Shown here: piece after piece, positions 3,202-54,004 of the stretch
Numbering within the stretch: position 1 is the stretch's first letter
Layout of the letters: each line of letters starts with the position of its first letter
NCBI GenBank assembly: GCA_041394745.1
Contig: JAWKHP010000003.1
Coordinates: 29,110-93,109 of the forward strand
Source of the DNA: Thermoanaerobaculia bacterium
GTDB lineage: Bacteria; Acidobacteriota; Thermoanaerobaculia; Multivoradales; JAHEKO01
Reading direction: 5' to 3'
Length of the DNA stretch: 64,000 nt
Made by a program: the position numbers and the translations under genes
Notes under the pieces: generated by a model
Told to the model about the DNA's origin: nothing
The model's input: the letters and a program-made list of their open reading frames with translations, nothing else
Database searches by the model: none

Positions 3202-3256
3202 CGGAGGCCGACTCTATCGGGCCGCTTCCGGACACCCGGCGGAGGCCGGGGGTAGC

Positions 3257-4366: not shown

Positions 4367-4662
4367 CGGAGTCCCGCCCGACCCGCCGTCAGGAGGTCAC
4401 CGACCTGCTGCGCCAGGGCGAGTGGAGCGTCGACGCTCTGCGCCGCGAGCTCGAGGTTCCCGTCCACGTCCTCGAGGAGGACCTCGCCCACATCGCCAAG
4501 AGCGTCCGCGCCGAGGGCCGGCGCCTCCGCATCGACCCCGCCCGCTGCCCGCAGTGCGGTTTCACCCTCCGCCCCCCGCGGCCGGGCAGCATCCACCCGC
4601 CCAGCCGCTGCCCCCGCTGCCGCAACGAGCGGCTCGAGGGTCCGTGGCTGCGGGTTCTCTAG
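4363..4662 (+). CDS. small HTH plus zinc-ribbon putative regulator (COG3357-like)
   Basis: A GTG at 4363 overlaps the upstream stop. The product reads VTDLLRQGEWSVDALRRELEVPVHVLEEDLAHIAKSV...CPQCGF...CPRCRN, giving two CxxC pairs. Confidence 0.4.
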   Translation: MTESRPTRRQEVTDLLRQGEWSVDALRRELEVPVHVLEEDLAHIAKSVRAEGRRLRIDPARCPQCGFTLRPPRPGSIHPPSRCPRCRNERLEGPWLRVL

Positions 4663-4823
4663 TCGCGGACGTCGCGCAGCGTCCCGGCGGCGCAGCGGTG
4701 GAGGATGCTGGCGATCAGGGGCCGGTAGGGAAGCGATAACATCGCCCGCGGCCCGACTGACAGTCGAGCCGGCCAGGCGGCCGGCGAGGTAGGACGAGCG
4801 AGTGGAAGCCACGCTTCGCTCGC

Positions 4824-7296: not shown

Positions 7297-7307
7297 GGCG
7301 GTCGACG

Positions 7308-8821: not shown

Positions 8822-8874
8822 AGCGCGTCGCGGGCGGCTGACCTCGCCCGCCGCCTGGGCTACGATTCGGGGCA

Positions 8875-11336: not shown

Positions 11337-11356
11337 GGCGGCCGCGGGAGGAGGCC

Positions 11357-12130: not shown

Positions 12131-12245
12131 GGGTGCTCGAAGTGTAACCTCACCGACGCCGTCGAACGAGGGCGGGCGCAACATACGCTCTCCGTCTCTC
12201 GTAGGGCCGGTCGAACCCGTTCTTCCACGACCCTGGAGCCCGTCG

Positions 12246-23084: not shown

Positions 23085-23248
23085 GCGCTCCTCCGGGAGA
23101 CTCAGATCCGGCCGTGACCGGAAACAGGAAAGTGAGGGATCGAGCGGGATTATCTCAGGCCCGAGGCGCGGGGGTGGCGACGGCCCTGGCGCCCGCCGGC
23201 GGATCGGTCCAGACTCTCGGAGCCGGGACGTCCTCCCGGTCCCACACC

Positions 23249-27117: not shown

Positions 27118-28590
27118 TCAGTTGGCGGTCGTCGTCCAGTGACTCGTGTCGCCGCTCTCGAACCCGTCGAGGAAGAACGCGCCTTCGCCGGCCCACGGAC
27201 AACCCTCCCCGTTGTGGATGCAGGCGATGCGGCTGCCCGCTCCAACCACGACGTAGAGCTCACCGAGGTGGTCCTCGGCGAACCCGTAGGTCCCCGAGAA
27301 CCCGCTGGCCCAGCACTGGGCGTTGATGGCCGCCGGGTTGGCGGGGTTGAGGGTGGTCGTCTTCCAGATCTGCCCGCAGGCCGCGTCGCTGTAGAGGTAG
27401 TCCCCCGCGATCGAGGGCACCTCGGTGCCACGGTAGCGGAAGCCCCCCATGACCGAGGCCCAACCGCCGTTGTGGTGGCAGAGGATGGGATCCCAGAAGC
27501 CGCTCGAGCGCGGGAACTCGCAGGTCGTACCCGGGTCCACCGGGCAGCCGGTCACCGAGCAGCCGGACTCGTCGTTGTTCGACGTCTCGCACCCTTCACG
27601 GCACGACCATCCGAAGTTCACGGGCGCGGCGAGGGCGGCGCGCTTGAGGTTGATCTCCTCCCACTTGTTCTGACCCACGTCGCCGATGTAGAGGTCGCCC
27701 GTCGTCCGGTCGAAGCTGAAACGGAACGGGTTGCGCAGCCCCATCGCCCAGACCTCGTCGCAGGCGGGATCCTGACCGAAGAACGGGTTGGTGGACGGCA
27801 CCGTGTAGTTGCTCGGCTCGCCCGTGGCGTCGCAGTCGTCCGGGGGGCCGCCCAGCGGGTCGATTCCGCGCACGTCGATGCGCAGCATCTTGCCGAGCAG
27901 GGTGGTGTTCTGCTGGCCGTCGCCGTTGATGCCCTGATTGCCGTCACAGCCGCCGCCGCCGTCGCCGATCGAGATGTAGAGGAAGCCGTCCGGGCCGAAC
28001 GCCATGTTGCCGCCGTTGTGGTTGCTGGCGGAGGAGTGCTCGATGACGAGGATCTTGGTCGCGGACCCCGGGTCGGCCACGTCGGGGTTCCCGGCCGAGC
28101 GCTCGTAGCGTTCGATGACGACGTCGCCCAGCGTGCCGCCGCCGAGGTCGCGGCGGGTGTAGTAGACGTAGAAGCGTCCGTTGGTCACGTAGTCGGGATC
28201 GGCCACCATCGAGAGCAGACCGCGCTCGCCGCCGAAGGAGACCGGCCCGCCGCTGCTCTGGCGCAGGTCGAGGAACATCGTCGGCAGGATCTCGCCGGTC
28301 CCGCCGTCCCAGACGAGGATCGCCCCCTCCTGGGTGGCGATGAGGCGCTTGCTCCGGCCGTCGTTCGGATCCACGAACGAGATCGGCGTGTTGGCGCCGC
28401 TCGGGAAGTCCGACGGACCGACGATGTTCGTGATTCCGACCGGAGCGCCCGGCGTGCAGGTCGTGCCGCACGACACGTTGAAGCAGCTCGTCGCGCCGTG
28501 AGCCGGTGCCCCGAGGAGGGCGGCGGCGAGGACGGCGGAGACGGGGACGAGGAAACCGGCGAGCCGGCGATGGGCGGTCGAGAACGTCAT
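27118..28590 (-). CDS. PQQ-dependent sugar (glucose/sorbosone) dehydrogenase-like beta-propeller protein, secreted
   Basis: The Met at 28590 gives MTFSTAHRRLAGFLVPVSAVLAAALLGAPAHG. Motifs GLLSMVADPDY, NHNGGNMAFGPDGFLYISIGDGGGG and GLRNPFRFSFD are present. It ends ...GAFFLDGFESGDTSHWTTTAN*. Confidence 0.7.
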   Translation of the reverse strand: MTFSTAHRRLAGFLVPVSAVLAAALLGAPAHGATSCFNVSCGTTCTPGAPVGITNIVGPSDFPSGANTPISFVDPNDGRSKRLIATQEGAILVWDGGTGEILPTMFLDLRQSSGGPVSFGGERGLLSMVADPDYVTNGRFYVYYTRRDLGGGTLGDVVIERYERSAGNPDVADPGSATKILVIEHSSASNHNGGNMAFGPDGFLYISIGDGGGGCDGNQGINGDGQQNTTLLGKMLRIDVRGIDPLGGPPDDCDATGEPSNYTVPSTNPFFGQDPACDEVWAMGLRNPFRFSFDRTTGDLYIGDVGQNKWEEINLKRAALAAPVNFGWSCREGCETSNNDESGCSVTGCPVDPGTTCEFPRSSGFWDPILCHHNGGWASVMGGFRYRGTEVPSIAGDYLYSDAACGQIWKTTTLNPANPAAINAQCWASGFSGTYGFAEDHLGELYVVVGAGSRIACIHNGEGCPWAGEGAFFLDGFESGDTSHWTTTAN

Positions 28591-31960: not shown

Positions 31961-33434
31961 ATCCCGTCGTCCCGAGCGCAGCGGGATTCAACGCAGGCGC
32001 CGAGCGCCCTGACGGGCCTGGGTGCAGTCCTCGGCCCGCAGCCGCCCATGAGCCCTACCTGTGCCAACCTCGCCAGCACGCGATCCAGCTCCCCTCGATC
32101 CAGCCACTGCCCCCTGAGCACGACGCCGTCGATCGCGTCGACCGCCGCCAGGTCCTCGAACGCGTTCCCGCGCAGGAGCACCAGATCCGCCGGCGCGCCG
32201 GCCACCAGCCGACCCTGCAGCGGATCGCCGCCGGCCGCCTCCCGGCTCCCGGGCCGCTGCGCGCGCAGCGCCGCGGCGGGGAGAGGGCGCGGCCGAGCAG
32301 CCGGACCTCGTCGTGCAGGCTGTAGCCGGGCAGCAGGCCGGGGCCCGCGATGTCGGTGCCGGCGCCGACCGGCGCGCCGCGCTCGGCCAGCAGGCGGACG
32401 AAGTCGACGCCGACGTCGACCAGCGACTCGCGCAGGCGGATGACCTCCTCGTCGCGATCGACGTCGCTCACCTGCGCCTCGGACCAGCTCCGTCTCTGCT
32501 CGGCGGTCAGGTAGCGCCACTCCGGCGCCGGGTCGTCGTGCTCCGCCGCCCAGTGGGCGCGCAGGTCGTAGGCGCGCAGCGTCGGGTCGAAGAGCGTGCC
32601 GTGGGCGGCGAAGCAGTCGGCGAGCGCCGGCGCCTCGTGGGCGAGCCAGTCGGGCATCGCCAGGAAGGCGGCCATCTGGTCGTCGAAGCCGGCCAGGTAG
32701 GTGCCCTCGAAGAGGGTCGCGATGTGCTCCACCGAGTCGAGCCCCGCCTCGCACGCCTCGATCGGCGTCACCGTCACCGGCACGTGGCCGGCCACCGGCA
32801 GCCCGGCGTCGTGCGCCGCCGCGACGAGGGCGAAGAACGTGTCGCGTGCGGTGGCGTTGTGCGTCTTGATCAGGTCGAACCCCGCCGAGGCGAGCCCCTT
32901 CACGGCCTGCCGGGCCTCCTCGGGAGTCTCGATCACCCGGTGGTGCGGGGCGTTCGGTGCCCCGTTCAGGGTCGGCCCGGCGCGGATCACCCGCGGACCG
33001 AGGAGCACGCCGCTCTCGATCCGCCTTCGCAGCGCCTCGATCTCCTCCGGCACCGCGCCGAGGTCGCGCACGCCGAGCACACCCTGCGTCACCAGCAGCG
33101 GCGGCGCGTGGTCGTCGAGCAGCGCCAGGTGCGTGTGCAGGTCCCAGAGCCCGGGCAACAGGTAGAGCCCCGCCGCGTCGACCGTGGTCGCGCCGGGCGG
33201 CGTCGTCGCCGTCCGCGCCGGCTCGATCCCGGTGATGCGATCGCCGGAGACGAGGACCGTCGAGGGCTCGCCGGCGCGGCCGGTCACCGGGTCGAGCGGT
33301 ACCGCACCGAGGAGGGCGAGCACCGGCCCGGCCGGATCGCTTCCCGGCTCGGCGTCGTGGCGGCACGCCAGGGGAAGGAGGACGAGGGAGGCGACGCCGG
33401 CGGCCAGCACGGTCCGGAGGGCGGAGGAGTGCAC
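31867..33434 (-). CDS. amidohydrolase-family lipoprotein with apparent frameshifts in the C-terminal third; the 3' end is uncertain
   Basis: ORF 32055..33434 reads MHSSALRTVLAAGVASLVLLPLAC (lipobox)...HTHLAL...HV...AGTDIAGPG. The C-terminal ...ADLVLLRGNAFEDLAAVDAIDGVVLRGQWLDRGELDRVLARL is in the frame of ORF 31867..33366. Confidence 0.55.
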
Positions 33435-33469
33435 GTTCGGGACTACCGGCAGCGCCCGCGGGAGGTTTC

Positions 33470-33499
33470 GTGTATCGGTGTACTAAAGCTGTGATACAC
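33470..33499. promoter_or_regulatory. inverted repeat GTGTATC-N16-GATACAC in an AT-richer spacer just upstream of the GntR gene (candidate YtrA-type operator)
   Basis: The palindrome is perfect over 7 bp. It lies 8 nt upstream of the GTG start at 33507, in the divergent region shared with the amidohydrolase gene. Confidence 0.35.
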
Positions 33500-33506
33500 T
33501 GGGCCG

Positions 33507-33902
33507 GTGATCGAGCTCCTTCCTCACGACGCCCGCCCGCTCTGGGCGCAGATCCGCGACGGCGTCCGCGATCGCATCGCCACCGGCACGCTCGCGCCCG
33601 GCGCCGCCGTGGCCTCCGTCCGGGAGATGGCGCAGCGCCTGCGCGTCAACCCGGCGACGGTGGCCAAGGCGTACCGCGATCTCACGGACGAGGGGCTGCT
33701 CGAGGTCCGGCGCGGCGAGGGCACCTTCGTCGCCGACCTCCCGGCCGAGACCCGCCGGCAGGCCGGCCGGGAGCTTCTCGCCGGCCACGTGCGGGACCTC
33801 GTCGACTGTGCGCGGGCCCTCGGGCTCGACTGGGAGGAGACGCGGGCGACGGTCGAAACGGAGTGGACCGCCACCACGACCCGAAAGAGAGCCACCCGAT
33901 GA
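33507..33902 (+). CDS. GntR-family transcriptional regulator, YtrA subfamily (short C-terminal domain)
   Basis: A 131-aa ORF with a winged-HTH N-terminus (ASVREMAQRLRVNPATVAKAYRDLTDEGLLEVRRGEGTFV), followed by ABC exporter genes. Confidence 0.7.
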   Translation: MIELLPHDARPLWAQIRDGVRDRIATGTLAPGAAVASVREMAQRLRVNPATVAKAYRDLTDEGLLEVRRGEGTFVADLPAETRRQAGRELLAGHVRDLVDCARALGLDWEETRATVETEWTATTTRKRATR

Positions 33903-34008
33903 CGCCCTTTCCTCGCAGCCGCCCCATCGCTGAGGACCGCCACGGCGGCACGCCACGCAACGCCTCCGTCAGGTCCACCAGGCCGTCGGAGACGCGGGGA
34001 CTCGTGCC

Positions 34009-34755
34009 GTGACGGCCATGCCCCCGGCCATCGAGGCCGAGAGCCTCGAGATCCGCTACGGCGCTTCCCGCCCCGTCCGTGACCTGTCCCTGCGGGTCGA
34101 ATGGGGCTCCGTCTACGCGCTGCTGGGCCGCAACGGGGCCGGCAAGAGCACCCTGGTGCGCTGCCTGCTGGGCCAGCGGCGCGCTTCGCGGGGCACCGCT
34201 CGGCTGCTCGGCCGCGACAGCTGGCGCCACCGGTGCCGGATCATGGCGGAGGTGGGCGTGCTCCCCGAGACGCCGCAGCTGCCGCCGCGGCTGACCCTCG
34301 CCCAGCTCTTCCTCCTGCGCCGCTCGCTCGGCGGCTGGGACGATGAAGAAGCCGAGGCCCGGCGCCGGGCGCTCGAGCTGCCGAGCGACGTGCCGGTCGG
34401 CAAGCTCGCGCGGTCAGAAGAGGCGCCGCCCTGGTGATGGCCCTCGCCGGTCGCCCGAAGCTCCTCGTCTGCCGCGACGACCCGACCCTCGGCCTCGACC
34501 CGGTGGCCCGCGCCCTCTTCTACGAGGCTCATCGCTTGCACGACCTCGCCGACCGCGGCACGACCGTCTTCCCTCACCACCCACGACCTGGCCGGCATCG
34601 AGGGCCTGGCGAGCGCACACGTCGGCATCCTCCATGGCGGAGCGCTCGTCGCCGACGACACCGTCGACGCGCGCTGCGCGACCGGCACCGCGACCCCCTC
34701 CGGCGAGCCGCGCGGCCTCCCGGACGATCTTCCGGACGCTCACCGCGGGAGGTGA
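34009..34755 (+). CDS. ABC transporter ATP-binding protein, split over three frames by apparent single-base indels
   Basis: Walker A GRNGAGKST is in ORF 34009..34437. The signature and Walker B region ...ALAGRPKLLVCRDDPTLGLDPVARALFYEAHRLHDLADRGTTVF is in ORF 34434... After a one-base correction the tail reads LTTHDLAGIEGLASAHVGILHGGALVADD...HRGR* with TGA at 34753. Confidence 0.6.
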
Positions 34756-35400
34756 TGCATGAGGGCTTCCTCTTCGTCCTGCGCAAGGAGCTGCTCGAGC
34801 GCCGCCTACGTCTTCCCGGTCGCCCTGGCCGTCGGCCTCGTCCCCTGGAGTCTTGCCCCTGGCTCCTCCCCTGCAGGCCGAGGATCTCCGCCTCGTCGCT
34901 GCCGCCGCCCTCGCCCTCGGCCTCCAGCTGGCCGTCGCCTGCGCCACCGGCGCCTCCACCCTCACCCGGCGACCTCGCCGCCGGCCGCCTCGGCTTCCTC
35001 TTCCTCCTCCCCATCTCCGAACGCGCCATCTGGGCGGCAAGCTCAACGCCGCGCTCCTGGTAAACGTCGGGGGCCCGAGCTCTGACGCTCGCGCCGAGCG
35101 TCGCTCTCCAGAAGCGTGGAGCTGACGATCTTCATCCGTGCCTACTGCTTGCAGCGCTGGCGTCTCTCCTGCGCAGTTCTCGTCGCTGGCAGCGCGCGAT
35201 TGCGGAGCGCGCTCGGAGCGCCTGGCTGATCCTCGATCTGCTGGTATTGGCGGGATCGTCCGGCTCGACGCTGGAGCCTCAAACGCTCAGGGACACGGGG
35301 GTGCCTGGGCTATCCGACCTCGTACTGACGGTCCTGTCCCAGTCGCTCTCGTCACCCTGCTGCTTTCCTCTTGGGGGCTCGTGAGGCAGGGCCGTAGCGA
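34755..35400 (+). pseudogene. ABC-2-type permease gene beginning MHEGFLFVLRKELLERR, broken by several frame changes (sequencing error or pseudogene)
   Basis: The ATG at 34755 overlaps the ATPase stop (TGATG). The hydrophobic pieces YVFPVALAVGLVPWSLAP, LRLVAAAALALGLQLAVACATG, LLLAALASLLRSS and PVPVALVTLLLSSWGLV lie in different frames. The end is not determinable. Confidence 0.3.
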
Positions 35401-35453
35401 AGCCGGATCAGGCGCACCGGGCATTCTCCCAGCGTGCGGCGATCGGCTTCGGG

Positions 35454-36747
35454 GTGACCGGTCGTGGTCGGAACGTACGCTGCGTGGGCTGTTCGGGTCG
35501 GTCCCCGCGACCTCGTCGGCTGCCAATACGCGGTACCCCTTCGCGGAACCAGCTGGGTGGTGTTGAGCGGTCCTTTGAAGGCGAGGCCCGGCGCGTGGGG
35601 ATTCCTCTTGTACGACACCGGCTCGGCGCGCTTCGTGCCCCCTCTCCGGGGACTCTGGACGGCATTCCGGGCCAGCTAGTCAGCTTGTCCGGAGACGGTC
35701 TGCTGCTCGTTGCGGTCGACGATCCGCAGGACAGGGGATCCTGGCGAACCTCTGTCGTGGACGGAGTGGGGCCCCCAGCCCGTCTGGACCGAAGTGCCGA
35801 TCTGGTTCCGAGACCCGACCCTTGGAGATCCGGCTCTCCTCCGACGGCTCCTGTTGGCGGCTTGGCAGAATCGAGACGGTGGGCTCCTGACGGTCCACGA
35901 AGCCATGACCGGCAGGCCGAGGTCCACTCTCCTCTCGAGCTCGCTCCGCCGACCGAGATACGTTTCGTCGATCCTGACCGGATCCTCTTGGCCTCGCCGA
36001 TCTGGGACGAGGAGGGCGAGTGGTCGCTGGAGCTCCACACCGTGTCGATCTCGACCGGTGAGGTCGTAAGCCAGGCCGAGACCGGCTCGATCTCGCGAGG
36101 AGGATTCTGGCTCGATTCGAGGAACTGGATGGTCGGCACAGTCGAAGGGCTCTACTCGACGGAGACAGCAAAGCTGCTGCAGCCGCTGTCCCAGCCGTTT
36201 CCGGGGAACATGGGTCATGCCACAGCTGTCACCTGGCCTGCTCGGATCGTGCGACTTGCCCGCTTGGATCGAAGTACGGAGAACGATGACCCACAGAACC
36301 CGATCCCGGAGCGAACTGCTTTTTTTTTGGACGACGCAGTCCGGGCTGATCCCCTCACGCAGTTCGCATCGAAGGAAAGACGCCAGAGCTCCACGGGCGG
36401 GTGGGGGAGCAATTGTGGTCTTGGTCAGTGGTCGAACCGATGGGGTAGATACCTGGAAGGTCGATGTGATGACGGAAGCGACTCGTAGCGCCGGGCGTGC
36501 GTTCGGTCGCGTCGCTGATGAGTCCGGCCAGTTCACCTGCAACGTCGCTCTACCTGGATGACGGCGGTGGTCTGATCCGCCTGGGACCCTCGGGTGAGCG
36601 GACCAAGTGCTCGCACCCGCAGAACCTCGACCCCGACGCCGATCTCGAGGCGTGGCCCTACCGCTATTTCGCTCGATTGGTTCACCGATCTCTTCGAGAA
36701 CCTCGGTATGGTGGCGCTGCCGAAGCCCAAGGCGAAGCAAAGCTGAG
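35454..36747 (+). pseudogene. fragmented ORF set (possibly a periplasmic beta-propeller-like protein) in a lower-GC segment containing a T9 homopolymer
   Basis: Protein-like stretches are split between the frames of ORF 35710..36069 (EPLSWTEWGPQPVWTEVPIWFRDPTLGDPALLRRLLLAAW...) and ORF 35454..36488 (LELAPPTEIRFVDPDRILLASPIWDEEGEWSLELHTVSISTGEVV...AFFLDDAVRADP). The T run is at 36320-36328 and a TGA at 36745-36747. Confidence 0.25.
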
Positions 36748-36750
36748 CGC

Positions 36751-39573
36751 TCACCCGGTGTTCTGCAACCCGTGGGCGATGCCGGTGACGGTGGCGAAGA
36801 GGGTTTGGAGGAGGGTGTCGTCCGGTGCGATTCGCCAGCCGCGCCAGCGGCAGGTGCCGACCTGGAGGAGGCTCATCGGGTCGACGTAGGGGTTGCGCAG
36901 GCGGATGGAGCGGGCGAGGACGGGGTCGGCTTCGAGGATCTCGGTCTGGCCGGTGGCGCGCAGGAGCAGGTCGACGGTGAGGTCGTGCTCGCGGCGGACC
37001 TCGTCGAAGAGGGGGCGGGCGTCGGGGTCAGCGGCGCGGCGTGGCCGCTCGGCGATATCGAGGTCGGACTTGGCGAGCGCCATCTCGACGTCGGCCAGGA
37101 GGTTGCGCACAGAGGACGGCGGTGAGCGCGGTGAGGGCGTCGTCGCCGCCCTCCTCGGCGACGGCGGCCAGGCCGCTCCCGACGCCAGAACCAGCCAGGC
37201 ACCCATCTGCCGGCTCTGCGTCCACGAGAAGACCCACGGGATGGCGCGCAGCGACTCCGCGCCGCCGCCCTCGGAGCGTGAGGCCGGACGCGAGCCGATC
37301 GACGGCCATCGATGACGTCGATCGGCGTGGCGGCGCGGAAGTAGGACTCGAACCAGGGGTCCTCGTGAACAACCGGTGGCTCCCCGACTGGCCGACGCCG
37401 AAGAGCCCCAGCCAGGCACGCCCGGGGACTGGTTCCGATCGACCCCTCCCCGTCGTCGGGGACAGGGCGAGGCAGGTACCAAACCGGCCGGGGTCGTCGG
37501 TGGTGGCGTCTGGCGGTGCAGGGCCAGTCGGAACCTGTCCCCTGACGGTGGCCAAGAGGACGGCGCCGGTGGTGCGCTCGGGGTTGCGCTCGGCGATGCC
37601 GCGCAGGCCGTACTTGTCAGCGATCACCTCGCCCTGCTCGGTCACCCGCAGCCAACCGCCAAGCCGAGCCGGGGGCGCGGCGAGGATGGCGCGGTGGTCT
37701 GCCGCCGCCGCGGCCGACGGTGCCGCCGCGGCCGTGGAGAGGACAAGGGCACACCCTCGCGACAGGCGACCTCGACCCGGGCGCTCCTGGAGCCCGCTGC
37801 AGGCCGCAGCGCGAGGCGGCGATGCCGCGTGCGCCTTTCGAGTCACTGCCAGCCCACCATCACGTGCTGGGTGAGGCCGCGGCCCTCGAGATGCCGCCGG
37901 TAGACGGGATCGCGAACGAGCTCGGTCAGCACCTCCGGCGCCGCCTCGAGATCGGCGACGGTCTCGAAGAGCGGGCAGACGTCGACCGCCGCGGGTCGCC
38001 GGTGGCCAACGGGCCGGCGCCAGCACCGAGAGCACGTCGTCGCCGCCCGCGCCATGCTGATGATCGAGAGACCGACGGCGGCGGGTCCCAAGGTCCGTCG
38101 CGCCTCGGCGGCCGCGCGGAACGACTCGAGGACCCGTTCGGTCTCGGGATCGGCGGCCCCGTCTCCCAGGCCCGGAGCCGGGCGGTCCGGCGACCGGGCC
38201 GCGCCCAGCATGGCGTGAAGGACGTCTGCGCGCTCGGCCGCGGAGCGCGTCCCCCACTGGGCGTCATTCAGAAGCCGGCCGACGGCCTGTCGGTGGACGG
38301 CGGCGTGCTGGCGCTGGTCGAGGGTGGCCAGGTGGAAGCCGAAGGTGGCCAGGCGTCTCTCGAGGCGGCGCAGCCAGAAGAGCCCCGCGTGCTCGCCGTG
38401 GTGGCGCGACAGGCTCTCGGCGATCGTGGCGAGATCGGCGGCAAAGCCGGCCGGCCCGTCGTAGCCCGCTTCGCCTCCGGCCGCGGTGGCGTCGAGGCGG
38501 GCGGCGATCAGGGTGAGGAGGACGTGGTAGGGCATCCGCCGCCGCCGCTCGGGGATCGCCGCCCGGGCCTCGGGGAGGAGCTCGCCCAGCGCCTCGATGC
38601 GCTCATCCACCGCGCCGTCCACCTCGACGCGCTCCGTCGACTGCGAGAGCCGCCCGGCGAGCGCGCGGACGTCGCGCCGGTAGAGGCCGAGGACGAGCTC
38701 GCGCTGGCGCGCCAGGGCGGCGCGGAAGGTGCCGGCGTCGACGAACGGGTTGCCGTCCATGTCGCCGCCGACCCAGGAGCCGAAGCGCAGGAGGGCCGGT
38801 GCCCGCCGGGTCCCCCCCGCCTCGGGCCAGGCGGCGACGGCCGCGCGCTCGAGCTCCTCGAGGAAGGGCGGGACGACGCGATACAAGACGTCGGTCAGGA
38901 AGAAGAGCACGTGCTCCCGCTCGTCGGCCACCGTCGGACGCTCGGCCGAGAGCTCGCGGGTCTGCCAGGCGGTCGTCACCTCGGCCCGCAGCCGGGCATC
39001 GATGGCCCGCCGCTCCGGCACGGTCAGCGACGGGTCGAGCCGCTCGACCAGGGAACGGGCGATGCGCTGCTCCTTCTCCAGCAGGACGCGCGGCGTCGCC
39101 TCGGTGGGGTGGGCGGTGAAGACCGGCTCGACCCGCAGGCCGTCGAGGAGCTCCTGGAGGTCGGAGGCGGACAGCTCCGGGCGCTCTGCGCGCAGTCGCG
39201 CCAGGACGTCGAGCAGGCTCTCCGGCTGCGGCGGCCCGTCCTCCACGCGCAGGTAGCTGCGCCGCCGCCGGATGCGGTGCACCTTCTCGGCGAGGTTGAC
39301 GACCCGGAAGTAGGCCGCGAAGGCGCGCACCAGCTCGCCTGCGCCGACGGCGTCGAGCGCCGCGAGGTCCCGAGCCAGCTCCGCGCCGGCCGCCGCGTCC
39401 CCCTGACGGCGGCGGATGGCGAGGCGCCGTGCCGACTCCACCCGCTCGAAGAGCTCGGGGCCGCCCTGCTCGACGAGCATCTCGCCCACCAGGGCCCCGA
39501 GCTCGCGCACGTCATGGCGCAGGGGCTCGTCCTTGGCGTTGAGCTCGACGTCGCGATCGAACGGTTGCGTCAC
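36751..39573 (-). CDS. ppc: phosphoenolpyruvate carboxylase, split over three frames by at least three apparent indels
   Basis: The N-terminal 576 aa are in ORF 37843..39573 (VFTAHPTE motif). A central piece LRVTEQGEVIADKYGLRGIAERN is in ORF 37028..38257. The C-terminus RAIPWVFSWTQSRQ...LRNPYVDPMSLLQV...GIAHGLQNTG* is in ORF 36751..37482. Confidence 0.7.
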
Positions 39574-39614: not shown

Positions 39615-40799
39615 TCAGGGCGCGACGACGCTCCAGGCGGAGGTGTCGCCGGTTTCGAAGCCGTCGGCGAAGACCAGCGGCCTCGCCACGGCCACCTTGA
39701 GGTCGAGGTCGCCATTGTCGAAGTAGCTCACCACCGGGAGGCCGTCGGCTCCGAGGACGATCGACGTGAAGTAGCCGACGTCCCCGGCGACGTCGACGGT
39801 CTGCAGGGTGGCGGCGGAGCACGCGGCGTCCGCACACCAGGCGACCTCGAGATCGCCGTTCGTCACGTCCGTGTAGCTCACGATGGGCAGGCCCCCGGCT
39901 CCGCGGACGATCGAGGTGTACTGCCCGACGTCCTCGATGCCGTCGACGGTCACCGAGGAGGCGGACGCGCAGCTCGCGTCGTCGCAGTGCGCCACCTTGA
40001 GATCGAAGCCGGTCGAATCCAGGTAGCTGACGACCGGCAGGTCATCGGCGCCGATGGCGATCGCCGTGTAGGCGCCGACGTTGCCGTCACTGTCGACGGT
40101 GTGCCGCTCGGCGGAGGCGCAGAGGAGATCGCCGCAGTGCGCCACCTTGAGGGCGTTGTTGCCGTAGTCGCGGTAGCTGATGACCGGCAGCCCATCCGTG
40201 CCGATGGCGATCGAAGTGTTCTGTCCGACGTCCGGGCCGTCGTCGACCACCTCGAGATGGGCGGAGGTGCAGGGCACGTCGGCGCAGTGCGCCGCCTTCA
40301 ACGTGCCGTTGTCGAGGTCCAGATAGCTGATGATCGCGAGCCCGTCGATCCCGATGGCGATCGAGGTGTGGAAGCCCACGTCACCGGCGCTGTCGAGGGT
40401 GGTGAGGGTGGCCGTCGAGCACGCGACGTCCTCGCAGTGCGCCACCCGGAGATCGTTGGCGGCAGCGTCGAGGTAGCTGACGATGGCGAGCCCGTCGGTG
40501 CCGACGGCGATCGAGGACTCGAACCCCGGATCGCCCTGGTCGTCGATGGTGTGCAGGGTCCTCGTAGCGCAGAGGGGATCGTCGCAGTGGGCGATCTCGA
40601 GCGTGGAGTGGGTGAAATCGCGGTAGCTCACGATCGGCAGCTCGTCCGCGCCGAGGGCGATCGAGGTGTAGCCCCCTACCGCGTCGGCGCCGTCGACGAT
40701 GCCGATTCGCCAGGCGGGCAGCCGAGCTCCACCGCGGGCCGCCGTGGCCGCTGCTGCAAGGATCAGGCAGGCGATCCGAAACGTCCGTCGAGGATCCAT
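39615..40799 (-). CDS. secreted repeat protein with about eight 44-aa beta-propeller-like repeats, each carrying a CxDxxC motif
   Basis: The signal peptide is MDPRRTFRIACLILAAAATAARGGA. The repeat unit is VDxxGDVGxYTSIAIGxDGLPxVSYxDxxNxxLKVAHCxDxxCxxA. The protein ends ...LVFADGFETGDTSAWSVVAP*. Confidence 0.6.
   Translation of the reverse strand: MDPRRTFRIACLILAAAATAARGGARLPAWRIGIVDGADAVGGYTSIALGADELPIVSYRDFTHSTLEIAHCDDPLCATRTLHTIDDQGDPGFESSIAVGTDGLAIVSYLDAAANDLRVAHCEDVACSTATLTTLDSAGDVGFHTSIAIGIDGLAIISYLDLDNGTLKAAHCADVPCTSAHLEVVDDGPDVGQNTSIAIGTDGLPVISYRDYGNNALKVAHCGDLLCASAERHTVDSDGNVGAYTAIAIGADDLPVVSYLDSTGFDLKVAHCDDASCASASSVTVDGIEDVGQYTSIVRGAGGLPIVSYTDVTNGDLEVAWCADAACSAATLQTVDVAGDVGYFTSIVLGADGLPVVSYFDNGDLDLKVAVARPLVFADGFETGDTSAWSVVAP
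39660..40720. repeat. about 8 tandem coding repeats of 132 bp inside the repeat-protein gene
   Basis: The repeat units have near-identical lengths and recurring codons (gtcgac...ggcgacgtcggc...agctacctcgac). They are coding repeats, not CRISPR. Confidence 0.5.
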
Positions 40800-44299: not shown

Positions 44300-44400
44300 C
44301 CCGGCCGGCAGAGGCGCCGGCCGCTTCGATCCGCCTTCCCGGGGCAGAATGTCTGAAGCGGCCGGCCCCCGTGCCGGCCGGACGCGGGTCCCGCCGTCCA
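44300..44400. repeat. REP-like intergenic element, same family as 26990-27117
   Basis: GGCGCCGGCCGCTTC...GAAGCGGCC stem, then GGCCCCCGTGCCGGCCGGACGCGGGTCCCGCC, which is about 90% identical to the 27013-27045 motif. Confidence 0.45.
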
Positions 44401-44468
44401 CCGAGGGCCCGTTCCGCCGGGACCCTCCGGCTCCGATCGGGTATGCTGCCGTCGCCTTTTCGAGACCC

Positions 44469-45608
44469 ATGCGACGACTCCCGATCCTCGCCCTCGTCGC
44501 CCTCGTGAGTACCGTCCTCCCGGCGGCAGGGGTCGAGCCCGCGAGCCTGGACGAGCTGCTCGCGGCGCCGGTTCCCGCCGGTGAGCCGTTCCGGTTGCTG
44601 CGCCTCTCGGAGCGCGCCGTGTACGCCGAGTTCGCCTCCGCGGCGCTGCGCGCGGAGGCGCTCGAAGGGCTCGATCCGGCCGCGGTCGGGGGTTCGCTCT
44701 CCGGGCCCGCCCTGACCGTCACCGACGCCGCCCTCGCCGCGGCCTACGGCGAGGCGCCGGGCCTGCACGGAGTCGCGGCGCGGTTCCGCGAGGAGCTGGA
44801 GGCCGTCGCGCTCCTGCCTGCCGGTTGGGAGCGCCAAGCCCTCATCACCCTGGTCGCCACCGAGCGCGCGAGCGACCTCTTCGACTTCTCGGCCTCGGCG
44901 CGGATGGAGGCCGTGGCCCGCGAGGCCGACGCCATCGATCAGGGGCGCAGCACCGACCCCGGCCTCGACAGCCGGCTGACCCATTTCGGAAGCGATCTGC
45001 CGAGCGCCGAGCTCTTCGAGGCGTGGAAGTTCGACGACCTTCCCGACGTGGTCGACGAGGCCGGGAGGCGCGACCGTGATGCCGAGCGGTTGGCCGACGC
45101 GCGGCGGGCGCGCTTCCTCTCCGAGGCGGTCCGCGCGCTCTACTGGACCGACCCCTCCTACGAGGCCACGGTCATCGAGTGGATCGAGCAGGAGCTGCGT
45201 CAGGAGGACGTCAACCTCATGGCCCAGCTACTCCAGCTCGCCGGCCTGGCGGAGATCGACCCCGAGACCCTGGTGCGCGAGAGCGCCCCGCACCTCATCG
45301 ACCCGTCCGTGCTCACCGGTCGCCTCTACCGGCGGCTCGAGAGCGTCACGGTCGAGGCCAAGGGGAAGGGCCGCCGGCTCGACGCGGCGCAGTTCCCGGA
45401 CGCGGACCTGCTCGCCCGCGCCGAGACGTTCTATCGACGCTTCTTCGTCGCCGACGGGAAGGGCCGCCTCCAGTTCGAGCTCACCCCGGAGATCCGTACC
45501 TTCATCGACGCGCGCAGTGCGCGCGTCCGCCAGATCACCAGCCCCCACCTCGAGCGCCTGCTCGGGGCGGCGTACCAGAGCGGCCAGGCCGCTGGAGACA
45601 CCCGATGA
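44469..45608 (+). CDS. hypothetical secreted protein (about 380 aa)
   Basis: The Met at 44469 gives the signal peptide MRRLPILALVALVSTVLPAAG. The sequence is protein-like without recognisable motifs. Confidence 0.5.
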   Translation: MRRLPILALVALVSTVLPAAGVEPASLDELLAAPVPAGEPFRLLRLSERAVYAEFASAALRAEALEGLDPAAVGGSLSGPALTVTDAALAAAYGEAPGLHGVAARFREELEAVALLPAGWERQALITLVATERASDLFDFSASARMEAVAREADAIDQGRSTDPGLDSRLTHFGSDLPSAELFEAWKFDDLPDVVDEAGRRDRDAERLADARRARFLSEAVRALYWTDPSYEATVIEWIEQELRQEDVNLMAQLLQLAGLAEIDPETLVRESAPHLIDPSVLTGRLYRRLESVTVEAKGKGRRLDAAQFPDADLLARAETFYRRFFVADGKGRLQFELTPEIRTFIDARSARVRQITSPHLERLLGAAYQSGQAAGDTR

Positions 45609-46069
45609 CCATCGACCCGCACCTCCGTTCCCCCTTCCGTCGCATCCCCGGTTCCGCAGTCTGGCTGCCGGCGCTCGCCCTGGCGCTCACCGTCGCAGCC
45701 TGCGGCGGCGGTGCTCCCGAGGCCGACTCCGCCGCTCCCGTCGCCGACGCCGGCGACTCCGCTCCGACCACGGCAGGTCGTGAGGCCAAGGAGGAGGGAG
45801 CCGGCGGCAAGATCGAGCGGCAGATCGAGCGCTCGCGGCAGACGCTCGACCGGCTGGAGGGCCTGGTCGACGGCCTGACGCCGGAGGAGCGCCTCGAGTT
45901 CGACGACGCGGTCGCCGAGCTCGAGCGGCGGCGCGACGAGGCCGTGGCCGCCGCGGGTGCCAAGGACCTCCGCCCGGCGAAGTTGCGCAGGCTTTCACGC
46001 GAGCTGGCGAAGGTGGCCGACGAGGCCGCGCAGCTCGCCGCCAAGGCCGAAGCAGCCGCCGGCGGCTAG
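45605..46069 (+). CDS. small lipoprotein (lipobox LTVAAC) with a coiled-coil C-terminus
   Basis: The ATG at 45605 overlaps the upstream stop (ATGA). The product reads MTIDPHLRSPFRRIPGSAVWLPALALALTVAACGG. Confidence 0.5.
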   Translation: MTIDPHLRSPFRRIPGSAVWLPALALALTVAACGGGAPEADSAAPVADAGDSAPTTAGREAKEEGAGGKIERQIERSRQTLDRLEGLVDGLTPEERLEFDDAVAELERRRDEAVAAAGAKDLRPAKLRRLSRELAKVADEAAQLAAKAEAAAGG

Positions 46070-46741
46070 TCGCGACGCGGCGCGCGGCTCGAGAGTGCGT
46101 CGAAGACCCGCTCGACGAGCCGGTCGCAGCGACGACCGTCGAAGAGGTAGAGACGGCGCGCCTCCTCGCCGAGGCGCATGTCGAGGACCCGGCGCAGGTG
46201 CAGCTTCGCCCGATGTAGGCGCACCCGGGCGCCCCCCGCCGGGAGCCCGAGCCGCCCCGATCTCCTCGGCGCCCAGCCCCTCGACCTCGCGAAGCACGAA
46301 GACGGGGCGCAACGAACGGGGAAGGGTCGCGATCGCCTCGCGCAGCAGGGCCGCGAGCTCGTCGTTCGCCGTGTCCGCCTCCGGTCCCCGCGGCCCCGGC
46401 CGGGGTGGAGGGAACGCGTCGTCCAGCGGCGTCGTCGGCCGCCGGCGACGGACCCGGGCGAGCGCCTCGTGGACGGCGATACGCGTCACCCAGGTGGCGA
46501 ACGACGCCTCGCCGCGGAACGTCGCCAGCTTGTCGAAGGTCCGGACCCAGGCCTCCTGCACCACGTCTTCGGCCTCTTGCGCACTGTCGACGACGGAGCG
46601 CGTGACCCGATAGAGACGCTGGTTGTAGCGCCGCATCAGGATCTCGAAGAGCTCGATCTCGCCCTCCAAGACGCGCTCGACGACCCGTCCGTCGGCGAGA
46701 GTCGCCAAGTGCGGCCTGACCTCCAGGAGGGGTTGGCTCAT
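46066..46741 (-). CDS. ECF-family sigma-70 factor; apparent frameshift in region 4
   Basis: The Met at 46741 gives MSQPLLEVRPHLATLADGRVVERVLEGEIELFEILMRRYNQRLYRVTRSVVDSAQEAEDVVQEAWVRTF...LREVEGLGAEEIG. The true C-terminus ...ARRLYLFDGRRCDRLVERVFDALSSRAPRRD* is in another frame, with stop (forward cta) at 46066-46068. Confidence 0.7.
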
Positions 46742-46766
46742 CGGAAGCTCGGGCGGAGTGTACTGC

Positions 46767-47162
46767 TCATGGCGCCGTGCCGGCGGCGTCGCGGAGCGCG
46801 GCCAGCCGGGCCAGGGTGTAGGCGCCGACCGCCATCGCGAGGTCGCGCACCGCCACGTCGAAGCTGCCGAGGGCGAGGAGGTTGATCGCGATGAGACAGA
46901 GCCATGCGGCGGCGATCCAGGCGCCGAGCCTCGGCCAGCGCGTGAGCACCATGCACCCGACCGCCATCTCGACGACTCCGACGACGTGGAGCAGGGTCGT
47001 GGGCTCCAGCGGGACGAAGGAGGCGACCGCGGGCGACAGGTACTCGGGCCAGTCGGCGAGGAGGTTGAAGAACTTGTCGAGCCCGGCGAGCAGCGGCACC
47101 AGGGAGTAGGTGAGCCGGAGCGGCCGGTAGACCGAGTCGGGGACGGGCGAGTGATCGGACAT
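46767..47162 (-). CDS. DoxX-family membrane protein, upstream of and co-directional with the ECF sigma gene
   Basis: The Met at 47162 gives MSDHSPVPDSVYRPLRLTYSLVPLLAGLDKFFNLLADWPEYL... with four hydrophobic helices. A 25-nt gap separates it from the sigma factor start. Confidence 0.6.
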   Translation of the reverse strand: MSDHSPVPDSVYRPLRLTYSLVPLLAGLDKFFNLLADWPEYLSPAVASFVPLEPTTLLHVVGVVEMAVGCMVLTRWPRLGAWIAAAWLCLIAINLLALGSFDVAVRDLAMAVGAYTLARLAALRDAAGTAP

Positions 47163-47444
47163 GCGATCTCCTTTCCCCGATAGAGAGTCGCCCGGATCCG
47201 GATCGTTACGAGGTGGGAAAGAACGGGGCAGTCCTCCCGGGAACGCTTCCGCGGGGTGGGAGCCCGCGCGTCGCAGGAGAGCGCGCCGGCGGCGTCGCGC
47301 GGGCTCCGATGCGTCCGGCACGCCCCTTGCTCTCTAGGGGAGCACGGGAAGCGAGAGGCGTCACCTTCCCGACGACACCGACCGAACGATGAACCGACGC
47401 GGGGGACGAACGACGCCGCGGCCCCCGGCAGAGAGGAACCAGGA

Positions 47445-47765
47445 ATGAAGATCAATCGACTCGGACTCGCAGTCGCCCTCGTGGCGACTCTCCTCGCGCT
47501 CGGCACGGTCGCCACCCTGGCGGCCCAGGACGAAGGCTCCATGGACATGGAGAAGGCTCCCGTGACGTTGACCGGTCAGCTCAACGAGTCGGCCGACGGC
47601 GGCTACGTGCTCGTCGAGCCGGAGAGCGGCGAGGAGATCGTGGTCGACGGACCCGGTCTCGCCGACCACGTGGGCTCCAAGGTGACCGTCACCGGTACCT
47701 GGGAGACCGACGAGGACGGCAACACCTACCTGGCCGTCACCGAGGTGAAGGAGAGCGACGCCTAG
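47445..47765 (+). CDS. small secreted protein (106 aa)
   Basis: The ATG at 47445 is preceded by gagaggaaccagga. The signal peptide is MKINRLGLAVALVATLLALGTVATLAAQ. Confidence 0.5.
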   Translation: MKINRLGLAVALVATLLALGTVATLAAQDEGSMDMEKAPVTLTGQLNESADGGYVLVEPESGEEIVVDGPGLADHVGSKVTVTGTWETDEDGNTYLAVTEVKESDA

Positions 47766-47838
47766 GAGGCCTCGCAAGAGGCGGCCTCGCCCGGGTCGCG
47801 ACCGTTAGCCTGCCGGTCGCGGCCCGGTGCCGAGGCCA

Positions 47839-48528
47839 TCAGTAGGTCCGGGTCGACCGCGTGCGCACGGCGTAGTCGGCCTCGCAGCCGTCGGCGACCA
47901 CCGAGTACTCCGCGAGCGCGTCGTCTCGTCCCGTCGTCCGTCGTTTCGAGGACGAAGGTGAGCGTGTCGCGCAGCGGAAGGCCTTCGGCCAGGTCGCCCG
48001 GATCCGGATAGAGCAGGCCGCCGCCGAAGATCGGCAGCGTCGCGTCGGGCCGACCGGCGAAGCGTACGTGGGTGTTGCCCACCAGCACGACCCGCACGTC
48101 CTCGCTTCCCCACTCGATCTCGGCCGCCATGCTCGCCGCCCGATCCGCGGAGCCCGGAGGGTCGAGGGGGTGCACCACGGCGCGTGACTCGTCGAGGAGC
48201 GAGCGGAAGGCCTCGGCGTTGAACAGCGGTGCCAGTCGGCTGCACTCCAACGCCCGCGGCGGGCACCGGGTGCTCAGGCCTTCGACGTAGAGGCCCACGT
48301 CGAGTCCGCGATCGACGAGACCGTTCACCAGGTCGACGGTGAACTTCTTCACCGGCCCGACCGCATGACGCTCGCCGATGAAGAGGTAGTGGGGACGGTC
48401 GCGCTCGACGCGGGTGAGCACGTCGCCGAGGGTCGTGTCGATCCCCGGTCCGCAGAGGGCGCCCAGAGCTGCCGTCGTGAGGACGGAGAGGGTGCAGGTC
48501 GCGGCGGCGCAGGGGCGAGTCGACTCAT
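47839..48528 (-). CDS. ChaN/Tiki-like haem-binding lipoprotein with about two apparent frameshifts
   Basis: The GERH motif appears in HYLFIGERHAVGPVKKF. A probable start MSRLAP switches frame into CAAATCTLSVLTTAALGALCGPG (lipobox). A corrected tail reads ...DDALAEYSVVADGCEADYAVRTRSTRTY*. Confidence 0.4.
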
Positions 48529-48611
48529 CGGAAAGCGGCCCGAGAATAGCCGACGCCCCCGCCCTTCGCCCACCTGTATGGGTGGGAGGCGGGCTGCTAC
48601 CATGCGGCGCG

Positions 48612-49857
48612 GTGTCCTTCCGGCCCATCTTCCTCACCGTGGTCCTCGCCACGGCGCTGGTCGTCGCGGCGTTCGTGCTTCACGGCGAGAGGCCGGCGAT
48701 CGAGCGGGAGCAGCCGACCGCCGCGCTGGCGCGTGCCACCGGCAAGTGCGCCGAGTGCCACGCGCGGGAGACGCCGGGCGTCGTGCACGAGTTCGAGACC
48801 AGCCGGCACGCGGCGCGGGGCGTCAGCTGCCTGGACTGTCACCGGCCGGCGGAGGGTCAGGAGGAGGTCGATCATCAGGGCTTCGTCATTTCGGGCACGG
48901 TGACCGCCAAGAGCTGCTCCACGCCACCGCGGGCAGTACGAGCAGTACCTTCGCAGCCGGCATGCGGCGCCCGCGTGGGCGGCGGTCCGGGGAGCGGGTG
49001 ACTTCTCGGCCGCGCAGGTGGCGGCGGCGGAGGCGTTGCACCCGGGAGCGGTGGACCGCCCGGCCAACGCGTTGGCGGCGCTCGAAGGGGGACCCGCCCA
49101 GACGAGCGGGTGCCAGCGCTGCCACGACGTCGGCCGGCCCAACGCCGACGGCTCGATCGGTGCCTGCACGGCGTGCCACGCGCGCCACGCGGCTTCGATC
49201 GAGCTCGCCCGCACGCCGGAGACGTGCGGCCAGTGCCACATGGGTCCCGACCACTCCCAGATCGAGATCTACCGCGAGTCGAAGCACGGCGTCCTGTTCC
49301 ACACCCAGAGGGCGTCGATGAACCTGGGGGCCGATCCGAAGCGCCTCACCACCCGGGACATGCCCGTGCCCACCTGCGCCACCTGTCACATGAGCGGCCT
49401 GGAGGGTGCCAAGGTCACCCACGACACCACCGAGCGCCTCTCCTACTGGCTCTTCGCGGAGGTCTCCGAGCGCCGGCCGGCGGCGACCCGGGGAGCGCAG
49501 GAGATGCAGGATCTGTGCGCCAACTGCCACGCGCGGGACTCGATCGAGCGTTTCTACGCCCAGGCGGCGGACGTGGTCACGCGGACCAACGACCTGGTCC
49601 GCCGCGGCAGGGAGGTGATCGAAGGCCTGAGGGCCGAGCACCGCCTCTCGCCCGAGCCCTTCGACGAGCCGATCGAGTTCGCCTACTTCGACCTCTGGCA
49701 CTACTACGGACGAACCGCCAAGCACGGCGCCTTCATGGGCGGAGCCGACTTCGTCCAGTGGCACGGGTTCTACGAGCTGACCCACGGTCTCGCCGAGATC
49801 GAGGACGAGGCGGCACGGCTGCGCGGGGTGGAGGCCGGTGCGACGCCGGCTCCCTGA
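48612..49857 (+). CDS. multihaem (probably octahaem) c-type cytochrome, HAO/Otr-like, split by an indel near 48930
   Basis: A GTG start gives the signal anchor VSFRPIFLTVVLATALVVAAFVLHG. CxxCH motifs are CAECH and CLDCH (frame of ORF 48414), then CQRCH, CTACH, CGQCH, CATCH and CANCH (frame of ORF 49018). A shifted reading gives ...AKSCSTCHRGQYEQYLRSRHAAPAWAAVRGAGDFSAAQVAAAEALHPGAV with a possible eighth CSTCH. Confidence 0.65.
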
Positions 49858-50695
49858 GTCCCTCGCCCGCCCGTCCCTCCAGGTCGAGCTCTTCGTGCTC
49901 GCCAACCTGGCCTTCCTTTCGCTCGACATCGCGGTCGCCCATTCGGTCAATCGCTTCGCCGAGCCCGCCGAGTGGCTGCCGCTGGCCTTCTCCCTCCTGG
50001 CACCGTGGGTACTCCTGGTCGCCCTCTGGCTGGACCGCTGGCGGCCGGGGAGGCAAGGGCGCGGCCGCACCCTCGGTCTCGCGGTGGGCTGGGGGAGCGT
50101 CGCCGTCGGCGTGGGGGGTCTGCTCTTCCACCTCGACAGCCGCTTCTTCGCCGAGCAGACCCTCGAAAACCTCGTCTACACGGCGCCGTTCGTCGCCCCG
50201 TTGGCCTACACCGGTCTCGGGCTGCTGCTGCTGTTGGACCGCACCGTCTCCGATCGCGAGCCGGAGTGGGCCCGCTGGGTGCTGCTGCTCGCGGCAGGAG
50301 GCTTCGCCGGCAACTTCGTCCTCAGCCTCGCCGACCACGCGCAGAACGGCTTCTTCGACCCCCGGGAGTGGATCGCCGTGGGTGCTGCCGCCCTGGGCCT
50401 CTCGACCCTGCTGGTAGCGACCGTCTCGCGCCCGAGCCGGGGATGGCTGCGTTTCGTGATCGGCATCCTGATCCTCGAGGCGCTCGTCGGTCTCCTCGGC
50501 GCCTGGCTGCACTGGCGGGCGATTCTCGCGAGCCCCATGAGCCGGCCGCTGGAGCGGGTCGTCTACTCGGCACCCGCCTTCGCGCCGCTTCTCTTCCCCA
50601 ACCTCGCCCTGCTCGCCGCGCTCGCCGTGGCGGCGGCTCGGCCCGACAGTGAACCCGGCGTCCTCTCGAGCGTAGAAGGGGACCAGGCCGGCTGA
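49838..50695 (+). CDS. polytopic membrane protein (about 7-8 TM helices) overlapping the cytochrome gene end
   Basis: A 285-aa ORF with a GTG start, hydrophobic throughout (LFVLANLAFLSLDIAVAHSV...FVLSLADHAQNGFFDPREWIAVGAAALGLSTLL...). Confidence 0.55.
   Translation: MRRRLPESLARPSLQVELFVLANLAFLSLDIAVAHSVNRFAEPAEWLPLAFSLLAPWVLLVALWLDRWRPGRQGRGRTLGLAVGWGSVAVGVGGLLFHLDSRFFAEQTLENLVYTAPFVAPLAYTGLGLLLLLDRTVSDREPEWARWVLLLAAGGFAGNFVLSLADHAQNGFFDPREWIAVGAAALGLSTLLVATVSRPSRGWLRFVIGILILEALVGLLGAWLHWRAILASPMSRPLERVVYSAPAFAPLLFPNLALLAALAVAAARPDSEPGVLSSVEGDQAG

Positions 50696-50725: not shown

Positions 50726-54004
<3,279 letters not shown>

Follow-up and report, generated by a model that had tools for sequence, protein, structure and literature searches.

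Frameshifts clustered across an ABC exporter operon and ppc in a Thermoanaerobaculia contig very probably reflect consensus error rather than gene decay

Bacterial genomes that are host-restricted, or whose niche has recently shifted, are examples of those in which pseudogenes arise under relaxed selection. Real decay of this kind affects genes in full, brings in stop codons as well as many substitutions, and shows up in every accurate read.

Long-read (meta)genome assembly is also known to fail through small indels that shift reading frames, a problem described for proovframe (10.1101/2021.08.23.457338), by Sereika et al. 2022 (PMC9262707) and for Polypolish (PMC8812927). Errors of this nanopore type split genes into adjacent ORF fragments, partly at short homopolymers, and persist after polishing as a patchy residue, usually of one error per several kb, while accurate assemblies of the same organism carry those genes intact.

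Here, we report on a window of 64,000 nucleotides from a contig of a Thermoanaerobaculia bacterium (the window being the whole stretch of DNA analysed) that resembles both situations and departs from both. As in bacterial pseudogenes, conserved genes carry frameshifts and their annotation is truncated, but the affected tract ignores gene borders, the frame-corrected ppc gene is free of stops, and an independent assembly lacks the indels. The fragmented genes, the patchiness and the intact copies in other assemblies of the population are those of long-read error, while the density of about one indel per 40 bp, the sharp left edge, the additional ~2.5–3% of substitutions over 3.8 kb (near raw-read quality) and the many events that are not homopolymer changes set the tract apart from the usual residue. 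From these comparisons we judge, with a probability of about 0.92, that positions 34263 to ~38040 form an under-polished, error-prone consensus tract, an assembly defect and not gene decay. The features concerned are as follows.

33507..33902, plus strand: intact short GntR-family regulator (YtrA/PmtR/Rv1152-like), 131 aa, adjoining the tract on its left
34018..34762, plus strand: ABC-2/DrrA-type ATPase, broken in the window from 34405 on, with a probable true product of 244 aa (P0121)
34263..38050, no strand: probable error-rich tract of ~3.8 kb and roughly raw-read quality, from comparison with the independent contig L002 and frameshift-aware alignments
34759..36746, plus strand: single membrane-protein gene of ~660 codons with at least 23 frameshifts, recognised by full-length homologs
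36751..39573, minus strand: ppc (phosphoenolpyruvate carboxylase), ~926–940 codons, with the 3' 1.3 kb within the tract and the 5' 1.5 kb clean
46232..48923, no strand: second, milder error-rich stretch, from comparison with the independent contig L084
32270..32290, minus strand: isolated frameshift in an amidohydrolase gene, from the ortholog in the relative L001 and a frame tracker
~2590, 6018, 6116, 8640 and 13048, no strand: isolated frameshift candidates, from tracker switches

The earlier note on this DNA had described a cluster of at least about 10 frame changes between 34009 and 39573. The clustering is borne out and is stronger than was claimed, while both its limits and its density had to be revised. 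The left edge is exact at 34263, as L002 is identical to the window up to 34262 (0 differences over the 502 bp of 33761–34262). The right edge, placed at the first detectable event (38040), carries an uncertainty of ~100 bp; frameshift-aware alignments reveal no events past it, and 38051–39573 is event-free. Between these edges lie at least 50 frame-breaking indels, against ~9 visible frameshifts in the remaining 60 kb. The count is composed of 21 indels from the L002 comparison (34405–35103), at least 13 at 35334–36665 and at least 16 in ppc (36830–38040), the last two being lower bounds obtained by frameshift-aware alignment to homologs. An independent codon-usage frame tracker placed 13 of its 22 switches inside this 5.9% of the window (chance test, p = 3e-11), and 50 of 63 homology- and reference-supported events fall in the tract (chance test, p = 2e-49). 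Multi-kb neighbours stay in one frame, including, in the tracker, the long genes at 50745–53966, 54144–58358, 19747–23097 and 17606–19621.

One unbroken tract takes in three unrelated genes, encoded on both strands: it begins mid-ATPase, 245 nt inside that gene, and ends mid-ppc, at ~1.5 kb from the start codon, with edges unrelated to gene borders. Its sequence differs by ~5–7%, half of this in indels of 1–4 nt. The suggested association with homopolymers holds for about half of the verified indels, which alter a short run; the others involve di- to tetranucleotides or non-repeat sequence, and a purely homopolymer-based cause was rejected on that ground.

The references used were Logan k-mer assemblies of the public runs SRR32022410 and SRR32022564, which sample the same population as the window; our literature search found no paper naming SRR32022410. 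Their contigs cover 846 bp at the left end of the 3.8-kb tract and, among the ~nine isolated sites, three; homolog alignments support the remainder of the tract. Exact product matches were sought for three genes, one of 99 aa at 4363, one of 248 aa at 31091 and the 394-aa neighbour upstream of ppc; none came up, and for this reason no independent contig was obtained over the right edge of the tract, the sites at 2590–13048 or 32282. A search of GTDB species representatives likewise returned no sister genome, the top ppc match being 60%. L002, a contig from SRR32022410, shows that accurate reads over the left part of the tract exist in at least one run, a point that counts against the reading as consensus error.

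Over 34263–35108 (846 bp), L002 differs from the window by 21–25 substitutions and 20–23 small indels. It has none of the 23 window indels at 34405–35103, which measure 1–4 nt and in 21 cases shift the frame, and the ratio of indels to substitutions is ~1:1 (23 vs 21). Natural variation in clean stretches has a different form: two further contigs show 2 substitutions in 1780 bp (L085) and 6 in 1345 bp (L086), both without indels, with a combined count of 10 substitutions and no indels against the window; flanks are identical or at least 99.5% identical. In clean stretches, Logan assemblies and window differ by substitutions only, at no more than 0.45%. Every indel covered by a Logan contig is missing from it, namely the 23 in the left 846 bp and a further 7 in 46.2–48.9 kb. 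The earlier note had called for comparison with a sister genome; these same-population assemblies served in that role, and they lack the indels and carry the genes intact.

The first affected gene encodes the ATPase. Base by base against L002, it has 11 frame-shifting and two in-frame indels in the window, and it is represented in the NCBI annotation by a 139-aa fragment only (P0123). L002 encodes an intact 244-aa ORF (P0121), 96% identical to the window ATPase, and the gene that follows stays open up to the contig end. Upstream, the product of 33507..33902 matches Pfam GntR (E = 3.5e-15) as well as the Rv1152 and PmtR families of NCBIfam, and orthologs occupy the equivalent position in the relative L003 and in L088. 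The arrangement recalls YtrA/PmtR-type operons of a GntR regulator and an ABC-2 exporter, in which a short GntR gene precedes those for a DrrA-like ATPase and a membrane subunit, with stop and start codons overlapping. It is unlike them in that the membrane subunit has 654–660 aa, including a C-terminal domain of ~400 aa without a Pfam or NCBIfam match.

This membrane subunit had previously been seen as a permease and a separate unknown segment, the latter an ORF set at 35.4–36.7 kb. Full-length homology to proteins of 654–657 aa identifies a single gene, of which the ORF set is the C-terminal two thirds: P0241 (657 aa) and P0242 (655 aa) match over their full length (E = 1e-99), and frameshift-aware alignment of 34759..36746 covers residues 3–653 with 19 events. 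Ten frame-shifting events fall in its first part, up to 35103, by comparison with L002. In L088 the order GntR, ATPase, ortholog of the ~660-codon gene is kept. Every hydrophobic, predicted membrane-spanning segment lies in the N-terminal ~250 aa (hydropathy), and the C-terminal ~400 aa match no known family in Pfam or NCBIfam. The gene is absent from the NCBI annotation of the window, and Pfam finds nothing on the raw ORFs of 34.3–36.7 kb, owing to the broken frames and to the uncharacterised nature of the family. Scans of the entire window for Rfam families and tRNAs were empty, which ruled out an RNA gene in the lower-GC segment at 35–36.7 kb.

In ppc, tblastn alignments hop between frames, and Pfam PEPcase (PF00311) positions 1–572, 623–677 and 728–919 are matched in three ORFs in different frames. 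Alignment to P0002 allowing frameshifts covers residues 6–926 with 16 events and no stops. All of the at least 16 frameshifts lie at 36830–38040, within the 3' 1297 nt of 2820, and none at 38051–39573, an arrangement with p = 4e-6 under random placement. After frame correction the 3' part is 75.7% identical to P0002, vs 76.1% for the clean half, with no stop codons. Genuine decay, with indels accumulated in ppc and in the genes for the ABC ATPase and the membrane protein until all three became pseudogenes, would be consistent with the disruptions being present in the deposited sequence, with the truncated NCBI products (P0123 and, for ppc, the 576-aa P0001), and with the variable occurrence of the GntR–ABC module, which some relatives have and others lack, so that the operon may be dispensable. 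We nevertheless consider decay highly improbable: the flanks are identical to an independent assembly where the tract differs by ~5–7%, indels equal substitutions in number where populations naturally differ by substitutions only, the edges lie inside genes with 1.5 kb of ppc 5' sequence untouched, corrected ppc has kept its identity, and the same population carries an intact ATPase together with intact ECF sigma, ChaN-like and cytochrome genes. The preference of the earlier note for sequencing or assembly error, from locally low coverage or error-prone reads, is in this way supported, and we reject its alternative of a pseudogene status for ppc and the exporter.

A still smaller chance, close to negligible, is left to programmed frameshifting or transcriptional slippage that restores the frames in vivo. 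Nothing but the presence of frame changes speaks for it, while the at least 50 events are of mixed sign and size and have no common motif, and every homolog, like the ATPase copy from the same population, is one uninterrupted ORF, with no single conserved shift site.

The density of substitutions in the tract is ~2.5%, vs 0.03–0.07% in clean stretches of the same run (the left part of L002, L085, and L084 apart from its garbled patch), a ~40–90-fold difference. All nine third-position substitutions relative to L002 are synonymous, five of them consecutive (34882–34976), which suggests, at the level of sequence comparison, that some are true strain variants and not errors. Together with the variable presence of the GntR–ABC module among relatives, these features would fit a consensus built from two haplotypes ~1–3% apart, or a graph path through a rare strain, in which variants are overlaid with uncorrected read errors. 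We regard such a mixture as possible, though doubtful; it would be one form of the artefact and offers no biological alternative. Weighing against it, 12 of the 21 substitutions are non-synonymous and they are spread 5:7:9 over codon positions, as with random errors; haplotype mixing by itself gives no 1–4-nt indels every 40 bp; and the tract edges differ from those of the inserted module. That a rare strain, whose path the assembler chanced to take, really has this sequence, either after very recent local indel-rich hypermutation of a 3.8-kb segment that includes part of ppc or through import of a segment decayed beforehand, seems to us every bit as improbable as decay.

Milder damage of the same kind recurs elsewhere. 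The Logan contig L084 (6290 bp) spans 44360–50644 at 99.7% identity and differs from the window by seven indels, one garbled patch and two lone substitutions. All seven indels, at 46258–48923, fall in the broken spots of the window or in adjacent spacers. The window has a 27-bp garbled patch in the ECF sigma gene (46232–46258), +1, -1 and +1 shifts in the ChaN-like gene (47927, 47976 and 47984), -1 shifts at 48512 and 48556, each in a run of 5–6 G or C, and -2 at 48923 in the multihaem cytochrome; in L084 the three genes are intact (225, 229 and 415 aa). Isolated sites were assessed with the codon-usage tracker and a stop-distance test, and the isolated frameshifts reported before were reproduced at 2590, 6018/6116, 8640, 13048, 32282, 46230, 47925 and 48923. 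At the 2590–13048 candidates the upstream-frame stop is 115–1075 nt away, and Pfam domains cross the junctions at 6116, 8640, 46230 and 48923. In the amidohydrolase, the L001 ortholog aligns over residues 2–341 in frame -3 and 328–400 in frame -2, with a switch near 32280, and the tracker switches at 32281/32282.

On the reading as consensus error, local accuracy would have failed at 34263–~38040, leaving it near the quality of raw error-prone reads; the contig was probably built from long, noisy, nanopore-like reads. Low depth, strain heterogeneity or a bridge made of a single read or a few may have kept the stretch from being polished; elsewhere the contig is much cleaner, with patchy leftover indels. 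Gene order is collinear with the relatives L001 and L003 on both flanks, and a chimeric join was rejected for that reason. The true genome here would hold four intact genes, namely those for the GntR regulator, the 244-aa ATPase, a ~660-aa membrane protein and a ~926-aa ppc product.

In such MAGs, error density can swing ~40-fold within a few kb, and a genome-wide mean quality value conceals tracts of this kind. The biological importance of the finding is low, and its practical value lies in the misannotated ppc and exporter: the public record of this Thermoanaerobaculia MAG lists as proteins a stump of 576 aa for ppc and a fragment of 139 aa for the ABC ATPase, and it misses the 660-aa gene. 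Pseudogene counts, scores of completeness or quality and reconstructions of metabolism (anaplerotic CO2 fixation) that rely on the contig would therefore be wrong. In the organism itself, ppc is very probably normal and the ABC exporter under GntR control very probably works.

Frame-breaking changes in the window are concentrated in an error-rich tract of roughly 3.8 kb, from 34263 to ~38040, which cuts an ABC ATPase gene, a membrane-protein gene and the 3' part of ppc (phosphoenolpyruvate carboxylase; minus strand, 36751..39573). Because long spurious ORFs occur in every frame of the window at its G+C of ~72%, frames were judged by third-position G+C, by a Viterbi frame tracker that models codon usage and was trained on the clean long ORFs of the window, and by homology, with a frameshift-tolerant protein-to-DNA alignment purpose-written for the analysis. 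The features concerned, from three-frame translation and Pfam matches respectively, are as follows.

33507..33902, plus strand: GntR regulator, 131 aa, intact (three-frame translation)
34018, plus strand: start of the ABC ATPase (three-frame translation)
34759, plus strand: start of the hydrophobic protein (three-frame translation)
37843..39573, minus strand: ORF matching PEPcase profile positions 1-572 (Pfam)
37028..38257, minus strand: ORF matching PEPcase profile positions 623-677 (Pfam)
36751..37482, minus strand: ORF matching PEPcase profile positions 728-919 (Pfam)

Three-frame translation reveals many frame changes in the ATPase and the hydrophobic protein. The hand-joined ATPase matches P0122 (82%, JGI) and P0121 (244 aa, 96% identity), the latter from the Logan assembly of run SRR32022410, whose source contig L002 (1369 bp) represents the same population and aligns to window positions 33761-35108. 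The first 502 bp show zero differences, whereas from 34263 on default scoring counts 25 mismatches and 20 gap openings, and gap-friendlier scoring 21 substitutions and 23 indel events. These indels (14 insertions and 9 deletions in the window) measure 1-4 nt, and 21 of the 23 have a length not divisible by three. L002 encodes the ATPase as a single ORF of 244 aa, and the gene after it is open up to the contig end. It is possible that a second, slightly divergent strain contributes to the tract consensus, as all nine third-position substitutions are synonymous, five of them consecutive, but the remaining 12 are non-synonymous and all three codon positions are affected evenly. Such a strain would help to explain why the consensus is poor, without giving the frameshifts a biological meaning.

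Fragments joined from 34759-36746 retrieved two database proteins of 655-657 aa (P0241 and P0242; E about 1e-99) matching the entire query, and a frameshift-tolerant alignment with 19 events spans residues 3-653 of these proteins and window positions 34764-36737. Since both homologs and alignment span them, the "permease" and the "35.4-36.7 kb ORF set" that the earlier note listed as separate features are one gene of ~660 codons. All hydrophobic segments of the homologs lie within the first ~250 residues and are followed by a C-terminal domain of ~400 aa; no matching family was found in Pfam or NCBIfam. After frame correction, this domain shows lower identity to homologs than the N-terminal domain, and G+C over 35000-37000, which covers it, is 0.645-0.67 against ~0.72 elsewhere, which may reflect its fast evolution or extra noise. 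The longest homopolymer of the window, a nine-T run at 36320-36328, also lies inside the tract and is possibly itself an error product.

The 576-aa ORF at 37843..39573 (-) is identical to P0001, an NCBI entry ([quoted passage not shown]) from a 298,802-bp contig. With tblastn, the match to the closest full-length homolog, P0002 (926 aa, 73% identity), jumps among all three minus-strand frames between ~38100 and 36750. Frameshift-tolerant alignment of P0002 residues 6-926 gave 16 events at 36830-38040 and none in 38051-39573 (p = 4e-6 for all 16 falling in the 3' 1297 of 2820 nt, under random placement along the gene). Once frame-corrected, the 3' part contains no stop codons and is 75.7% identical to P0002, compared with 76.1% for the clean 5' part; intact homologs are 8-10 points more conserved in their C-terminal than in their N-terminal part. 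The modest shortfall fits a few percent base errors, not decay.

Directly upstream of ppc, a 394-aa protein (39615-40799, -) consists of about eight ~45-aa repeats in tandem, in which the motif VAHC.D..C recurs, and has no convincing Pfam match. It shares a C-terminal motif, F.DGFE[ST]GDTS.W plus 4-5 residues and the stop, with two unrelated window proteins and with one protein of L001, a relative's contig (gene 2-676); from sequence, this ending looks like a shared sorting or anchoring tag. In the window it occurs at these sequence ends.

7249-7278, plus strand: S8 protease
27136-27165, minus strand: ORF ending near 27136
39633-39662, minus strand: 394-aa repeat protein

The supported frame-breaking events in the tract number at least 50 (21 from the L002 comparison, 13 farther along the membrane-protein gene and 16 in ppc), with homolog alignments as the sole source for the right edge and ~3 kb of the tract. 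Because the alignment method recovered 6 of 10 events in the stretch whose true sequence is known, the actual total probably lies closer to 90. The tracker and a stop-distance test gave nine frameshift candidates outside the tract, five with homology support. Under a uniform model, p = 3e-11 for 13 of 22 tracker switches falling within 5.9% of the window and 2e-49 for 50 of 63 events within the tract. The clustering described in the earlier note is confirmed and is stronger than stated there.

That note had preferred error over gene decay, and the analysis supports error and rejects decay: the tract starts within the ATPase gene and ends within ppc, affecting three unrelated genes that lie on both strands, and its flanks are identical to an independent assembly. 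Indels match substitutions in frequency, and the proteins are undamaged once frame-corrected. A chimeric join was likewise rejected. L003, from a relative, carries the amidohydrolase (-), GntR, ATPase and membrane-protein genes in the window's order, and in L001 the amidohydrolase comes immediately after ppc, with the next gene behind it. The GntR-ABC module, which lies between ppc and the amidohydrolase in the window, thus adjoins the amidohydrolase in L003 and is absent from L001 (3536-3884 against window 33400-36750), so that it is a natural difference between lineages, caused by insertion or deletion; the module's edges, at about 33.4 and 36.75 kb, do not match those of the tract. In the window, L003 and L088 (4001-5965), the gene for the 654-660-aa protein comes after those for a short GntR regulator and a DrrA-like ABC ATPase. 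Conservation of this three-gene module reaches as far as L088, an 8.8-Mb genome contig, where the protein has 654 aa and the trio also has overlapping stops and starts.

Other same-population contigs extend the comparison. L084 (6290 bp, same run as L002) is 99.7% identical to window 44360-50644, differing by 7 indel events, 2 lone substitutions and a garbled patch of 27 bp (46232-46258). Its genes for the ECF sigma factor (225 aa), the ChaN-like protein (229 aa) and the multihaem cytochrome (415 aa) are all intact, bearing out the frameshifts earlier noted in all three window genes, which the tracker flags at ~46230, 47925 and 48923. All 7 indels and the patch fall within a milder error-rich stretch of 2.7 kb (46232-48923), with zero indels in the flanking 1.9 and 1.7 kb. 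In clean stretches, only substitutions separate L085 (2 in 1780 bp) and L086 (SRR32022564; 6 in 1345 bp) from the window, so natural variation in the population consists of substitutions and the indels are peculiar to the window. A single 1-nt difference occurs near the end of L087 (SRR32022410), where a T present at 31185 in the window and in L086 is missing (position 893), probably a contig-end artefact, 30 nt from that end, or a minor variant. Where the tract is covered, indels number ~27 per kb, against ~0.7 per kb over the 9.9 kb of comparison outside it.

The spectrum of errors, the contig's length of 299 kb, the residual indels scattered patchily elsewhere and the literature on long-read assemblies (10.1101/2021.08.23.457338, PMC9262707, PMC8812927) suggest that the contig was built from noisy long reads and that the tract escaped correction. 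The tract is an assembly artefact of low biological interest.
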